A DNA stretch of 64,000 nt, taken from the NCBI GenBank assembly GCA_018175075.1, contig GCA_018175075.1_4100.1. One strand, written 5' to 3'. The position numbers were made by a program, and so were the translations under genes. Position 1 is the stretch's first letter. Every line of letters starts with the position of its first letter. The notes under the pieces were generated by a model. It worked only from the letters and a program-made list of their open reading frames with translations. It was not told where the DNA came from and did no database searches. The DNA comes from a phage. Positions 1 through 64,000 of this stretch are shown here, in pieces.

Positions 1-39
1 ATCAAACGAAATCCACTTTAACAAATGATAGGAAATATT

Positions 40-318
40 ATGTCTTTTTCTAAAGAAGAACGTGACCTTATTAAAAAAGCAATTTGGTTTTATGCTAATG
101 AAGGGAAGTGCGATGAAGAAAAAGCACGTGAACTGTGTAATATTCTTGAGAAGAAACAAGAACTGAAAGTGTATCGTATCCGTGATTTGGATGAAGGGGA
201 TCGTATTGTCCTAGCTGAAACAAAAGAAGAAGCAGAACAAATCTTCACTGATAAAAACGAAAATCCACATTGGATGGAAGAAGTCTGTGATGTTAAAAAA
301 GGTACTTATATCGATTGA
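40..318 (+). CDS. hypothetical protein
   Basis: ORF; ATG 40 has AGGA 6 nt upstream (in-frame ATG 25 also possible). Confidence 0.5.
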   Translation: MSFSKEERDLIKKAIWFYANEGKCDEEKARELCNILEKKQELKVYRIRDLDEGDRIVLAETKEEAEQIFTDKNENPHWMEEVCDVKKGTYID

Positions 319-415
319 CAGTACTGAATAATAGCAGTATTATGTTTTATATAAAAGGGAATGCAGTGAAAGGAAAGACAGCATAATCGTACTCGTCACT
401 GCGTTCCCGCCCTTT
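315..415 (+). promoter_or_regulatory. sigma70-like promoter TTGACA(315-320)/17/TATTAT(338-343) plus leader hairpin 357-408
   Basis: hexamers and spacing read directly; 13-bp inverted repeat GGGAATGCAGTGA/TCACTGCGTTCCC then T-run. Confidence 0.45.
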
Positions 416-437
416 TAAATTAAATGAGGAATTAACT

Positions 438-746
438 ATGTTTCAAACTAACACTCAAGGTTTTGTAATCATCGATTTGAATCAAAACAGCGGTTATTGG
501 ATGAAACCTACTGACGCATGTATGCAGTTTGATTTTTTAGGTTACAGGATTAGTGTAAGTACTGGTGCTTCTGTACTGAGAGGTGGTTGTATCGTTGAAC
601 ATCTGGTAACTGATCCAGAAGGTCGTGAGTATGAAATCGCAGGTTCAGTACAAGATGCCATTATGTTTGTATGTCAGCGTGAAATGAATGGTTCGAATTC
701 AAATGCACTGACTCATGCTCTTTCTCAAGAAGTGGAGGTTCGTTAA
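438..746 (+). CDS. hypothetical protein
   Basis: 102-aa ORF, GAGG RBS. Confidence 0.6.
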   Translation: MFQTNTQGFVIIDLNQNSGYWMKPTDACMQFDFLGYRISVSTGASVLRGGCIVEHLVTDPEGREYEIAGSVQDAIMFVCQREMNGSNSNALTHALSQEVEVR

Positions 747-991
747 TGAAATACATTGTAGCAGTACTCGTCGCATTTCTACTCACTGCATGTGATGCTT
801 CTACCAAAGAACGTACAAGTGATTTTGTTCTACCTGCTGAATTAAAAGAAGCAGGGTGTAAGATTTATCGTATGCAACAAGATGGTGCTGGTGCGACTTT
901 ATACACTGTGTACTGTCCTAATGCAAATACAAGTACTGGATACACTAGCGGTAAAACACGAATCAACACTTCCGTAATTCATGGAGAATAA
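746..991 (+). CDS. putative lipoprotein
   Basis: signal peptide with lipobox LTAC (MKYIVAVLVAFLLTAC); start overlaps upstream stop. Confidence 0.6.
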   Translation: MKYIVAVLVAFLLTACDASTKERTSDFVLPAELKEAGCKIYRMQQDGAGATLYTVYCPNANTSTGYTSGKTRINTSVIHGE

Positions 992-993
992 CA

Positions 994-1362
994 ATGAGCC
1001 TTGATACAACACGTGCAGCAGATTTATTAACTCGTCTGAATGATGAAGAATATCTTGCTGAGATAAAGTACAAGCTTGACAAACTTGTTCGAAGTGCTGA
1101 AGTAATTGAAGTTGAAGGTCACTTACCGATGGATCAATACCATAGGTTCAAGGAAGATATGGTTTATTATCCTAATGAAATTTGGATTGAGTGGCAACAT
1201 TGGACTAACAAAACTCTTCGCATTGAAGGGTATTGTGTGAAGTATGAAAGTTCACCTGGTGATGTTACAAAAACTCTATCAATTTGGTGTACAAAAACAC
1301 ATGAACTCGTTGAGGTGAATTTGAATTATATGAATGGCTTCCGTTGGGGTGATGTTCAATGA
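994..1362 (+). CDS. hypothetical protein
   Basis: 122-aa ORF, GGAG RBS. Confidence 0.6.
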   Translation: MSLDTTRAADLLTRLNDEEYLAEIKYKLDKLVRSAEVIEVEGHLPMDQYHRFKEDMVYYPNEIWIEWQHWTNKTLRIEGYCVKYESSPGDVTKTLSIWCTKTHELVEVNLNYMNGFRWGDVQ

Positions 1363-1634
1363 TTAAAAAACTATTGACAGTTGTCTTTGTATTCTGTACA
1401 ATGTTTCTTACAGCATGTAATGATGACGGCAGGTTTAGTGCAAAAGACTTAGTTCGTCAGGATTGTACATTCACAGGTAAGTCTTTTATTAACGAGTATG
1501 AGGTATGTACACAATCAGGTCGTATCTGTGGTGGTTGGGAAAAACGACAGGAGCGATTGTATGTATATGAATGCCCTGGACATCACAACAAAGTACTAAG
1601 CACACACAAACTTGTTTATGATAAGGTTGAATAA
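1359..1634 (+). CDS. putative lipoprotein
   Basis: signal peptide with lipobox LTAC (..CTMFLTAC); ATGA stop/start overlap. Confidence 0.6.
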   Translation: MIKKLLTVVFVFCTMFLTACNDDGRFSAKDLVRQDCTFTGKSFINEYEVCTQSGRICGGWEKRQERLYVYECPGHHNKVLSTHKLVYDKVE

Positions 1635-1849
1635 TGACTACCAATGAAATGATGCAGGTTATTTGGGATAAAGGTTGTGATATTAAAATCACTAGTACTG
1701 ATGTTCGTGTATTCAAAACTGAATATATGGAGTACTTGGACCTTGATACTTATAATAATATTGTATCAATTGAACACAAAGGTGCAGTACTGGAAACGAT
1801 TGATGTAGTACTCAAGAAAGCTACCGACCTATTAGGAGTGGCAGTGTGA
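1634..1849 (+). CDS. hypothetical protein
   Basis: 71-aa ORF contiguous with neighbours. Confidence 0.5.
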   Translation: MTTNEMMQVIWDKGCDIKITSTDVRVFKTEYMEYLDLDTYNNIVSIEHKGAVLETIDVVLKKATDLLGVAV

Positions 1850-62195: not shown

Positions 62196-62261
62196 AAAAA
62201 AGTCAAGGCGTTTTTAAAATTATGCGTTAAAAAAATGCATAGGTAATCCCTTGACTTTTTT
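62196..62261. repeat. perfect 13-bp inverted repeat with 40-nt spacer (bidirectional terminator-like)
   Basis: AAAAAAGTCAAGG .. CCTTGACTTTTTT. Confidence 0.5.
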
Positions 62262-62416
62262 GAAATAAAAGGGATTGGACTATGGCAAAATGCGTAGGGG
62301 GCTAAAGGGCGGGTAACCTTAGCGACTTCGATAAAGGGGTATTACGAATAAAATGTTATTGACTTTTTATATGAATCGTATAAAATATGATTGATATTAA
62401 TTTTAAGGGAGTCCCT

Positions 62417-62614
62417 ATGCGTATTTTAACTAAAGAACAGCACCACGAAAGACTTATCAATAACATGGCTATGATAATGTATAAGTCCCATGACCGTGGT
62501 ATTGCCTATAAGCGTGAATTAATTATGGCACTATTCATTGGAACTAACTTTCAGGAAAGGTATGTCAACGATTGGATTTGGTATTTAATTGAAGATATAA
62601 CGAGTAAACTATGA
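62417..62614 (+). CDS. small protein, tandem family Q (Q1)
   Basis: ATG 62417 with AAGGGAG RBS; motif IGTNFQERYV. Confidence 0.5.
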   Translation: MRILTKEQHHERLINNMAMIMYKSHDRGIAYKRELIMALFIGTNFQERYVNDWIWYLIEDITSKL

Positions 62615-62811
62615 AAATGCGTATTTTAAATAAAGAAGAATATCAATCACTGTTACGTAAAAACTACGTAAAGATTTACAACACAGACACACATGTAGAA
62701 CGAATGGAGTTATACCTTTTGATTACATTGGGAACAAACTATCAGGGTAGATGGGTGTGGCAATATATGGATACATTGAAAAATAAAATATTGTCCACGA
62801 GGAAACAATGA
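62611..62811 (+). CDS. small protein, family Q (Q2)
   Basis: 66 aa, ATGA-coupled; LGTNYQGRWV. Confidence 0.5.
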   Translation: MKMRILNKEEYQSLLRKNYVKIYNTDTHVERMELYLLITLGTNYQGRWVWQYMDTLKNKILSTRKQ

Positions 62812-63017
62812 AAACTATAACACGAACCCAATCATACGGTCTTATCTTGAAATACATGGACTTAATGGTGGATATCAGCAAAGACCTGCCTAAAACTGAA
62901 ATTGAAGTTGCAAGAGCAGAGATCCGCATGTTGGCTGTACTGAACACAAACCATCAGGAAGAGTATGTTCAAGATTGGATTCGATTTTTAATAGAAGATA
63001 TTAAGAGTAAACTATGA
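62808..63017 (+). CDS. small protein, family Q (Q3)
   Basis: 69 aa, coupled; LNTNHQEEYV. Confidence 0.5.
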   Translation: MKTITRTQSYGLILKYMDLMVDISKDLPKTEIEVARAEIRMLAVLNTNHQEEYVQDWIRFLIEDIKSKL

Positions 63018-63226
63018 TTATATTAACACCTGAAGAATATAAGAAACGTTTTAAATCTGTCCAGGCTGAAATATTACTTATATACCTTTCAAATGCAGAT
63101 CTTAACTTATCAAGGGTAATGGAGAAGGATTTACTTATGGGTGCATTTTTGGATACAGACTTTCAGGAGTATTATGTAGGAGAATACTTTATTGCACTTC
63201 AGAACCACATTAAGAGTAAACTATGA
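63014..63226 (+). CDS. small protein, family Q (Q4)
   Basis: 70 aa, coupled; LDTDFQEYYV. Confidence 0.5.
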   Translation: MIILTPEEYKKRFKSVQAEILLIYLSNADLNLSRVMEKDLLMGAFLDTDFQEYYVGEYFIALQNHIKSKL

Positions 63227-63438
63227 TTATTCTAGAAAAATCATATCAATATACTGAACGCATCGCTGCCAGACAACTTGAAATCCTCATAATATACGAA
63301 GAGACTTCTGATTTAAACTTAGCCGAGGTATTGGAAAATGAAATACTTTTGGGTGCATTCTTGGGAACAGACTATCAGGAGTATTATGAGGAAAAGTATT
63401 TGTCATCTCTTGAGAAATACGTCAGGAGCAAACTATGA
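63223..63438 (+). CDS. small protein, family Q (Q5)
   Basis: 71 aa, coupled; near-paralog of Q4. Confidence 0.5.
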   Translation: MIILEKSYQYTERIAARQLEILIIYEETSDLNLAEVLENEILLGAFLGTDYQEYYEEKYLSSLEKYVRSKL

Positions 63439-63662
63439 AACATTTAAGTAATATAGAGAAGAATAAAATTATCATTGCTGTAATAAACAAATATTTTACA
63501 CTTCCACAAAAAGAATGTTTATCTATAAGGGAACACAGGATAAACACCACCGAGATTCGCATGTTGGCTGTACTGGGGACTAACTTCCAAGAAGGCTATG
63601 TTCATGAGCACATCGTTGCACTCACTAATTACATAATGGACAAATGTAATGAACATCATTAA
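63435..63662 (+). CDS. small protein, family Q (Q6)
   Basis: 75 aa, coupled; LGTNFQEGYV. Confidence 0.5.
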   Translation: MKHLSNIEKNKIIIAVINKYFTLPQKECLSIREHRINTTEIRMLAVLGTNFQEGYVHEHIVALTNYIMDKCNEHH

Positions 63663-63873
63663 TAACTTTGAATACGAGGCCCGTGCTAAGAGTGCCAGAA
63701 AAAAAGAGAACACCATTTACTTCACTATGATGTACTTACAATGGACTGAAATTGAAGAAAAGGTTGCTGAAGTATGGATGTTGGAATTCATGGGGACGCA
63801 GTATCAGAATAGGTTTGCGGGTGAGTATATCAATGTTCTTATGAAACAAATAGAAAGAAAGGAAAAGAACTAA
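63649..63873 (+). CDS. small protein, family Q (Q7)
   Basis: 74 aa; MGTQYQNRF. Confidence 0.5.
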   Translation: MNIINNFEYEARAKSARKKENTIYFTMMYLQWTEIEEKVAEVWMLEFMGTQYQNRFAGEYINVLMKQIERKEKN

Positions 63874-64000
63874 TGGTTTTCATTAACATATCTGACCAAC
63901 TCGATACTAAACTAGAAGTCGAGCAGAGTGAGGGATGGATGTTGTACTTTCTTGGAACTTCTCATCAGAATTTTTATATCCATGAACACATAGTTGCACT
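63873..64000 (+). CDS. small protein, family Q (Q8), 3' end beyond window
   Basis: starts on upstream TAA; LGTSHQNFYIHEHIVAL; runs off the window. Confidence 0.45.
   Translation, partial: MVFINISDQLDTKLEVEQSEGWMLYFLGTSHQNFYIHEHIVA

Follow-up and report, generated by a model that had tools for sequence, protein, structure and literature searches.

The closest described counterpart of the element considered here is the highly iterated palindrome HIP1 (GCGATCGC) of cyanobacteria. HIP1 shares a number of traits with the hexamer AGTACT in a 64,000-bp stretch of phage DNA (positions 1 to 64,000 of contig GCA_018175075.1_4100.1 from GenBank assembly GCA_018175075.1, in the following referred to as the window). 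Both are short perfect palindromes that are over-represented by one to two orders of magnitude and dispersed in coding and non-coding DNA, neither belongs to a longer repeat, their conservation exceeds what neutrality would predict, and for both a link to a methyltransferase is suspected. The two elements differ in their sequence, in the length of the core (8 bp in HIP1 and 6 bp here) and in their carriers, which are cellular genomes in one case and a clade of virulent phages in the other. Furthermore, unlike in the case of HIP1, the phage genome purges nearly all other GC-rich palindromes, and the AGTACT sites lie at even distances and form part of promoters and terminators. In the window, AGTACT is a perfect palindrome at least 10-fold above the expectation from composition, it is dispersed, and it is retained above control words. 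As for the HIP1 sequence itself, CGATCG occurs once in the window and not at all in the related phage fEgEco12; AGTACT is an analogue of HIP1 and not a member of the same family. It can be regarded as a HIP1-like element in a phage, of which no report was found in the searchable literature; no paper found there links AGTACT, or any over-represented palindrome, to these phages.

Other well-described systems share further aspects. Uptake signal sequences (USS), DNA uptake sequences (DUS) and Chi sites resemble AGTACT in the genome-wide enrichment of a short word by which a protein can distinguish own from foreign DNA, as is presumed for AGTACT. In terminators, uptake sequences frequently form inverted pairs, and so does AGTACT here, and Chi is also enriched in the same phage, which makes motif enrichment a strategy that this phage uses. 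In contrast to AGTACT, which is palindromic and without a known reader, these words are asymmetric and orientation-dependent, and their readers, such as ComP and RecBCD, are known. Unlike in polar self-tags, to which KOPS also belongs, the AGTACT word and its flank preferences are palindromic, and a one-strand variant, AGTACA, is restricted to an island that is free of the trinucleotide ACT (see below). With the targets of type II restriction enzymes AGTACT shares the identical word and degeneracy as well as the symmetric recognition, as ScaI and Eco255I cut AGTACT and TatI cuts WGTACW (W being A or T). However, restriction-modification normally removes sites, as seen for 25 palindromes in this clade and for AGTACT in the coliphage ZYD, whereas AGTACT is enriched in the clade of the window, and no cognate enzyme was identified. 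The GATC sites that are methylated by Dam and read by SeqA and MutH are likewise dense and fairly even short palindromes working through genome coverage, but they are not strongly over-represented genome-wide, and their methylase and readers are known.

The best-supported description of AGTACT is that of a highly iterated palindrome that is kept by selection as a recognition site in duplex DNA and whose local density matters. An exact count gives 292 copies in the 64,000 bp, which makes AGTACT the commonest hexamer and the one with the highest ratio of observed to expected copies (13.5-fold). The expected number is 21.6 at order 0 and 22.3, 49, and 109 under Markov models of order 1, 2, and 3, respectively, and 100 dinucleotide-preserving shuffles contained 21.78 ± 4.38 copies with a maximum of 32. 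The maximal-order model (M4) predicts 236 copies, because the 5-mers AGTAC and GTACT are likewise enriched, and the tetramer GTAC is enriched threefold in the window. The extended form CAGTACTG occurs 66 times compared to 0.7 expected copies (order 0); the independent preferences for the two flanking bases predict 62.4, so there is no extra excess of this form. The density is about 3 sites/kb in 1-36 kb and rises to its highest value, 6-8/kb, in 36-60 kb, within the early region of tiny genes on the + strand (36100..60000), which runs on into what is the 21-kb terminal repeat in fEgEco12 (PMC13070987). The excess of AGTACT is thus real and strong, as had been claimed by eye in the initial annotation. 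This had also correctly put the chance expectation near one site per 3 kb and had counted six sites within 1681-2040, a stretch of small open reading frames (ORFs), where they start exactly at 1694, 1731, 1786, 1807, 1950, and 2024. The composite strings it had picked out are all present, namely TTGACAGTACTG with 3, GTACTGTATAAT with 12, GCCAGTAC with 14, and AAAAAGTACTTGCAA with 6 copies. Its estimate of one site per 50-150 bp was about twofold too dense, as the spacing has a mean of 213 bp and a median of 153 bp.

The same annotation had placed AGTACT in coding as well as non-coding DNA, which agrees with 195 sites in ORFs (196 in the count used for the coding controls) and 95 intergenic sites. 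Intergenic DNA is threefold denser in sites than coding DNA (10.2/kb vs 3.6/kb). Coding controls were based on an own set of 153 ORFs covering 85% of the window. Compared to the 196 observed sites, synonymous-codon shuffling retains 43.6 ± 6.2 (maximum 64) and codon permutation 26.1, so that the excess is still 4.5-fold after correction for codon usage; the shuffled and codon-shuffled controls that had been proposed as a check thus left the ratio far from 1. All three reading frames are enriched 3.6-6-fold, with 92 vs 25.7 expected copies for AGT|ACT, 37 vs 6.9 for xxA|GTA|CTx, and 67 vs 11.1 for xAG|TAC|Txx. AGTACT spells 92 of the 170 Ser-Thr dipeptides, where 25.7 would be expected. Ser-Thr (170 vs 98) and Val-Leu (168 vs 106) are themselves 1.6-1.7-fold in excess, unlike their reverse counterparts; in this way, proteins are shaped by a pressure that is exerted on the DNA word.

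The bases adjacent to the core are under preference as well. C is found at position -1 in 132 of 292 sites and G at +1 in 138 of 292, and the least used bases are G at -1 (22/292) and C at +1 (19/292), resulting in the consensus [not G]AGTACT[not C] with CAGTACTG as its best form. The counts at -1 (C116/T63/A52/G20) and the complement of those at +1 (C123/T67/A47/G14) are mirror images of each other, although about 85% of the genes lie on one strand, and therefore indicate duplex-DNA, dimer-type recognition rather than an RNA or single-strand signal. Beyond ±1, the relative entropy is at most 0.09 bit at every flank position. The 292 sites stand in 237 distinct flank contexts, unique 24-nt flanks are present in 225 of the 292 sites, and the largest clusters of similar flanks comprise 21 and 14 sites. 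What is enriched is thus a genuinely short word, with no longer repeat behind it. A dispersed repeat resembling miniature inverted-repeat transposable elements or repetitive extragenic palindromes is ruled out, since the conserved sequence does not extend past the core. The one-mismatch neighbours of AGTACT are mildly enriched (1.0-2.3-fold, with AGTATT/AATACT at 1.39-fold) and none is depleted, which argues against an origin from deamination or repair.

Conservation of the sites was measured against fEgEco12, which is 91% identical over 45.8 kb of aligned sequence. AGTACT is intact in 206 of 238 aligned sites compared to 174.6 predicted from the identity of the flanks, and the per-base mismatch is 4.1% in sites and 6.4% in flanks. 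In intergenic DNA these values are 1.55% and 4.9%, respectively. Composition-matched control hexamers do not differ from their flanks (8.8% vs 8.7%). AGTACT sites are under purifying selection.

The genome-wide picture was obtained from fEgEco12 with 371.5 kb assembled, in which 1093 AGTACT sites (125 expected) and 255 copies of CAGTACTG (4 expected) are present. Their number per 10 kb is 60-75 in the early regions of the terminal repeats and 13-40 elsewhere, and the density is even along gene deciles and gene-length classes (2.2-3.5/kb). Within 38-346 kb, the sites are under-dispersed, with a coefficient of variation of the gaps of 0.897 compared to 0.998 ± 0.036 in random placements, and the largest gap is 1976 bp compared to a simulated median of 2804 bp (P = 0.002). 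Outside the early region, site pairs are not above the Poisson expectation (261 vs 291), and the sole excess in pair distances, at about 20-24 bp, is due to promoter pairs. Cooperative arrays and helical phasing were rejected, as there is no periodicity and pairs are at or below Poisson outside the early region. Even gaps without short-range clustering mean that selection seems to act on coverage.

An island in which the motif cannot be formed serves as a natural experiment. In fEgEco12, AGTACT is absent from 29,016-37,647 (8.6 kb), an ACT-free block of about 22 sense-strand genes of unknown function that is confined to Asteriusvirus. On its sense strand, ACT occurs 7 times where 165 copies are expected and AGT is normal; among Thr codons, ACT is used 3 times and ACA 83 times. 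The exclusion of ACT from the sense strand makes AGTACT impossible in the island. The same block is present in 121Q (about 1000-8500 of the stretch examined), the islands being 81.5% identical at the DNA level and 56% identical in the one protein compared; as 121Q was sequenced independently, a sequencing artefact was rejected. In place of AGTACT, the island contains about 44-46 copies of AGTACA compared to 3-4 expected (about 12-fold), in every frame and exclusively on the sense strand. AGTACC, AGTACG, and other ACT-free one-off variants are not enriched in the island, and TGTACT is absent. The pressure for the motif therefore persists where AGTACT is forbidden, and since only AGTACA is enriched, a swap of A·T to T·A is accepted at the outer position, so that the site can be written as WGTACW. 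AGTACA reaches 5.1/kb in the island, compared to 2.9/kb for AGTACT in the neighbouring DNA, and the weaker version is thus made up for by more copies. This pattern is consistent with occupation of the sites by a protein, but not with a by-product of mutation. As to the exclusion of ACT itself, one may guess at an ACU-specific endoribonuclease to which the ACU-free mRNAs of the island would be resistant.

Enrichment of AGTACT is limited to the enterobacterial RaK2/121Q-like clade; the other genomes compared tolerate the word or avoid it, which is the usual fate of restriction-type palindromes. Within the clade, a 6-9-fold enrichment and the flank preferences of the window are common to Asterius-, Alcyoneus-, Mimas-, and Eneladusvirus: RaK2 (Alcyoneusvirus) has 119 copies in 50 kb (7.1-fold), GAP32 and CBB (both Mimasvirus) have 64 and 65 in 30 kb, respectively (about 6.5-fold each), and pEa_SNUABM_49 (Eneladusvirus) has 86 in 41 kb (6.2-fold). 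The more distant relatives PA5oct from Pseudomonas and RAS14 from Stenotrophomonas have 4 (26.6 expected) and 9 copies (12 expected), respectively, the unrelated coliphage ZYD (Vequintavirus) has none in 40 kb (13.4 expected), and a 50-kb sample of the host E. coli K-12 has 3 (11.6 expected). CTGCAG was considered as a palindrome of PA5oct's own and dropped, as its enrichment fell from 6-fold in 30 kb to 3.5-fold in 80 kb. Other palindromes are missing from the clade. GCGC is absent throughout, with 67 copies expected in the window and 377 in fEgEco12, and 25 of the 64 palindromic hexamers, each with at least four G/C, have zero copies. The clade thus responds strongly to restriction-type pressure. 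The tetramers GGCC, CCGG, and CGCG are near normal, and the AT-rich hexamers GAATTC and GATATC are not avoided.

AGTACT also takes up fixed positions in early promoters. In 27 cases in the early region, the site starts at -7/-8 from a -10-like hexamer (in the forms AGTACTG-TATAAT and AGTACTGG-CATAAT), and in 17 cases it starts at -27 (as AGTACTTGCAA, where it overlaps a -35-like hexamer); a third arrangement has it immediately upstream of TTGACA. At 49048..49083 (+), AGTACT-ATTGACA-N10-AGTACT-GG-CATAAT has one site abutting the -35 hexamer and the other abutting the -10, and the promoter AGTACTTGCAATTAGTTTTTAGTACTGTATAAT at 46156..46188 (+) has both sites 20 bp apart. The cassette of the type AAAAAGTACTTGCAA-N15-TATAAAT, in which the site overlaps the -35-like TTGCAA, is found at 51431..51463 (+) and has 9-26 copies per Asteriusvirus genome. 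The rV5-like coliphage ZYD has the same early-promoter scaffold with AAAAATTACTTGCAA (ATTACT) where Asteriusvirus has AAAAAGTACTTGCAA. As the scaffold works with ATTACT, AGTACT is superimposed on promoters and is not needed for promoter function as such. The respective part of ZYD (19960-20100 of the stretch examined) is 86% identical to window 51420-51520 over 64 nt. In the late array of RCC1-like genes and elsewhere, two AGTACT copies make up the stems of terminator-like hairpins. Examples are GCCAGTACT-ca-AGTACTGGC followed by a T-run between RCC1-like paralogues (34905..34924, -) and TCCAGTACT-atta-AGTACTGGA, which is made of two sites (21246..21267, +). Many terminators and some promoters are free of AGTACT; the proposal that the motif is built into nearly every regulatory element therefore holds for its presence in promoters and terminator hairpins and goes too far in its generality. 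Under a pressure as pervasive as this, the motif would have been written wherever it is tolerated, that is, into three frames, terminator stems, and early promoters.

From the observed enrichment, symmetry, selection on the sites, distribution in the clade, even spacing, and fixed promoter positions we infer a protein that reads the motif. WGTACW, with CAGTACTG as its optimum, would be a positively selected duplex-DNA site, and its reader would be two-fold symmetric and specific to the enterobacterial RaK2/121Q-like jumbo-phage clade. Selection would act mainly on local density rather than on single sites, so that the sites in phage DNA lie 0.2-0.4 kb apart and gaps of more than 2 kb hardly occur, compared to about one site per 17 kb in the host sample. 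The motif may thereby mark phage DNA as 'self' for a process that needs coverage of the whole genome, the likeliest being that an abundant DNA-binding protein of the phage coats, organises, or protects it. In early promoters, with the motif at the upstream edge of the -35 and directly 5' of the -10, occupancy would switch the promoters off. Our tentative preference, given with not quite even confidence, is for a recognition site read by a phage-encoded binding protein that marks or covers the phage DNA, and a binding protein is favoured over a methyltransferase as the reader. The initial annotation had suggested a genome-wide target of a DNA-binding or modifying activity rather than chance. 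This is supported in so far as AGTACT behaves as a selected duplex-DNA site with symmetric flanks that is conserved, clade-wide, and under-dispersed; the binding or modifying activity itself is hypothetical, and neither of the two methyltransferases of fEgEco12 could be linked to AGTACT. A more far-reaching and rather doubtful extension is that the clade runs a sequence-based system of self/non-self discrimination, without hypermodification of bases or a phage nucleus. In such a system, a phage protein would read the dense positive tag WGTACW, which is present every 0.2-0.4 kb and exceeds its density in the host sample about 50-fold, and negative tags that abound in host DNA (GCGC and the 25 palindromic hexamers) would be recognised by their complete absence from the phage. 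The density of motifs alone could then suffice to guide protection, replication, transcription, and nucleases to the proper DNA.

A number of observations weigh against a binding protein. Fully palindromic sites of 6-8 bp are typically met with in restriction-modification enzymes, and less so in structural DNA-binding proteins. Distances of site pairs up to 150 bp show neither helical periodicity nor cooperative clustering. In coding DNA the gain in conservation is only modest (5.7% mismatch per base in sites vs 7.3% in flanks), and the strong conservation of intergenic sites could reflect their role in promoters or terminators rather than the motif as such. The density in the host is based on one 50-kb sample of E. 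coli. Moreover, searches with Pfam on 36 candidate and neighbouring proteins, with PHROGs on 10 island proteins, and with NCBIfam on the two methyltransferases yielded no candidate for the DNA-binding protein, and the first gene downstream of a four-site cluster (42539-42958) is devoid of a recognisable domain.

Methylation is the most probable competing explanation, that is, AGTACT, WGTACW, or GTAC could be the target of a phage DNA methyltransferase whose marks protect against restriction of the ScaI/Eco255I type or act as an epigenetic self mark, as GATC does for SeqA and MutH. A short perfect palindrome with W at its outer positions is a typical type II specificity, and GATC is used in a manner similar to these under-dispersed sites, between which gaps do not exceed 2 kb. 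As the purging of GCGC and 25 palindromic hexamers shows, restriction does act on the clade; fEgEco12 nevertheless retains more than 1000 copies of AGTACT, and the counter-selection of AGTACT in PA5oct and in ZYD (0 vs 13.4) suggests an AGTACT-specific restriction in the hosts of these phages. fEgEco12 encodes two DNA methyltransferases, an N6-adenine enzyme of a phage family (PF05869/TIGR01712) and a DNMT3-like C5 enzyme that matches catalytic domains of DNMT3B end to end (E = 1e-23). Neither could be tied to AGTACT from its sequence. As the C5 enzyme is DNMT3-like over its whole length, a CpG-type specificity is likelier, and AGTACT is without CpG. The N6-adenine enzyme is from a family that is common among phages and has no known specificity, an N4-cytosine enzyme of the ScaI type is not annotated, and the phage also encodes a predicted S-adenosylmethionine (SAM) hydrolase. 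Virion DNA is cut by EcoRI, HindIII, ClaI, NsiI, and other enzymes in patterns matching those in silico (PMC13070987), which argues against a global base modification including global adenine methylation. A non-specific adenine methylation of the Hia5 type (PMC3299994) was rejected on account of these digests, and a family link to the phage enzyme was not established. Protection explains that sites are tolerated, but not that they are 9-13-fold enriched and evenly spaced. Altogether, methylation appears unlikely as the explanation. Taken by themselves, the C5 methyltransferase, the N6-adenine methyltransferase, and the predicted SAM hydrolase of the clade (g455, g162, and g271 in fEgEco12) form a seemingly contradictory set. 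Even less probable is a service in replication or recombination, with AGTACT as start site of primase or as site of nicking, clamp-loading, or programmed breaks on both strands at regular intervals. The palindrome would give the same signal on both strands, its uniform density across genes and under-dispersed spacing without gaps above about 2 kb match the scale of Okazaki fragments, and its clade-specificity looks as if it co-evolved with the T4-like replisome, of which primase, helicase, clamp, clamp loader, and a gp46/47-like nuclease are annotated. However, known primases of the T4/T7 type read trinucleotides and not hexamers, and we know of no precedent for a primase hexamer that reshaped a genome. 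A site-specific nickase was not identified, and the fixed positions in early promoters and the doubled density in the early region would be left unexplained.

The remaining explanations carry still less weight. A neutral by-product of biased mutation or repair, such as very-short-patch-like repair or biased gene conversion, is improbable. It would account for an enrichment that is found everywhere, including the inside of long structural genes, and for the mild enrichment of one-mismatch neighbours, but the expected precursor and product words such as AGTATT/AATACT are not depleted, for which reason very-short-patch-type repair was rejected as a source. Sites are conserved above their flanks and control hexamers are not, the spacing is more even than the Poisson or clustered pattern that a mutational process would give, and the enrichment of a single surrogate at higher density in the ACT-free island requires selection. 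A function at the RNA level, in which for example an ACU-directed endoribonuclease would cut at AGUACU and thereby set the timing of mRNA decay, is very improbable. It is suggested by the ACT-poor sense strand of a block of about 8 kb in fEgEco12 and 121Q, which is a strand-specific signature. Against it stand the strand-symmetric flank preferences despite the location of most genes on one strand and the many sites within promoters, upstream of transcription starts; ACU alone is abundant (about 20/kb), so that the hexamer would add nothing, and the island retains AGTACA, which does not contain ACU. There is also only a slim chance that the phage hijacks a host reader of AGTACT operators, in the first place the nucleoid-occlusion factor SlmA and, as weaker candidates, LexA or TrpR with their half-sites. 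All motif-bearing phage genera infect Enterobacterales, and AGTACT is the exact core of the SlmA-binding sequence GTGAGTACTCAC, with which it shares the central six bases (PMC3020112). SlmA, however, requires G1, T2, A4, and G5 as well as a purine at position 3 (PMC3020112), and these outer bases are not enriched in the phage. Matches to GTRAGYRCTYAC are absent from the window and from 371 kb of fEgEco12, SlmA-type flanks are found in only 1.2-1.4% of half-sites, and the adjacent bases, G at -1 and C at +1, are the ones disfavoured here. SlmA-binding sites were rejected by this flank test, and LexA boxes were rejected because CTGT-N8-ACAG has only 1-2 matches. An inflation of the count by promoter and terminator cassettes, paralogues, or a preference for the codons AGT, ACT, GTA, and TAC has next to no probability. 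Some cassettes are indeed repeated, as reflected by the two largest flank clusters, and AGT and ACT are common codons, but the predominance of unique flanks and the excess that persists after synonymous shuffling and in every frame led to the rejection of both a repeat or cassette artefact and codon bias.

With AGTACT, a HIP1-like phenomenon is now at hand in culturable and genetically tractable virulent coliphages, at a 6-bp site that is cut by commercial enzymes. A natural control is built in, as an island that forbids the motif is filled by a surrogate and the site is avoided by sister lineages as well as by an unrelated coliphage. The question of how a highly iterated palindrome is maintained thus becomes directly testable in these phages. 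Should the motif be a self tag, one would learn how a phage of 350 kb distinguishes or shields its genome although its DNA is unmodified and a nucleus is lacking. Furthermore, these phages, which are candidates for therapy, should be extremely sensitive to hosts with an AGTACT-specific nuclease unless the site is protected, and the enrichment of AGTACT offers an easy means of recognising the clade.

Megablast places the window in Asteriusvirus, i.e. among the PBECO4/121Q-like jumbo myophages of E. coli with genomes of about 350 kb; it is 97-98% identical to several isolates over 1-25 kb and 94-96% over 36-60 kb. Small genes on the + strand (1-21.9 kb) are followed by eleven RCC1-like paralogues on the - strand (21.9-36.1 kb) and by the early region with very small genes on the + strand (36.1-64 kb), which in fEgEco12 continues into a direct terminal repeat of 20,993 bp (PMC13070987). 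A homing-endonuclease gene with HNH_3 and NUMOD4 domains (10080-10622) is inserted beside a virion structural gene, and the presence of such endonucleases varies among relatives. Most of the eleven RCC1-like (beta-propeller repeat) genes at 21924-36116 (-) are preceded by a common cassette of a AAATATAGTATAATGAATAAAGGAGG promoter and a ribosome-binding site and followed by a hairpin of the kind CCAGTAC...ACTGGC, several of which have the full AGTACT.

The early region contains about 20 tandem paralogous genes of 59-84 codons without recognisable domain (36201-40592), whose products have N-termini like MN..KEFY and C-termini like LLIYRY or LKLISI; a second array of this type is located at 21-27 kb in fEgEco12. 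The array in the window is followed by 1.46 kb free of ORFs (40593-42055), which adjoins the position equivalent to the boundary of the terminal repeat in fEgEco12 and contains short direct repeats (GGATTTTGGGCGTAG and units of GGCTAGAC/GGCTAAAC) and a dozen AGTACTGA sites. This segment may be a packaging or terminus region. A 53-bp tandem duplication at 42380..42515 (+), each copy of which has two AGTACT sites 13 bp apart, and an additional promoter-embedded site lie upstream of 42539-42958, the first gene of the terminal-repeat region. After early promoters, just 5' of the ribosome-binding site, a hairpin in the 5' untranslated region (GGGGAGAAATGATTCTCCCC or GGGGAGCGGTTCCCCTGG) recurs at 43690-43730, 46660-46700, 50650-50690, 54610-54660, and other positions, which is the cause of the 5.9-fold enrichment of CCCTGG. 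Other words are biased as well. The E. coli Chi sequence GCTGGTGG occurs 10 times on the + strand and 5 times on the - strand of the window (about 0.2 expected) and 31 and 14 times in fEgEco12 (1.4 expected each), where most copies cluster within the terminal repeats (at 10-20 kb and 360-370 kb), and CCACCA, ACCACC, and CACCAC are enriched 7-fold.

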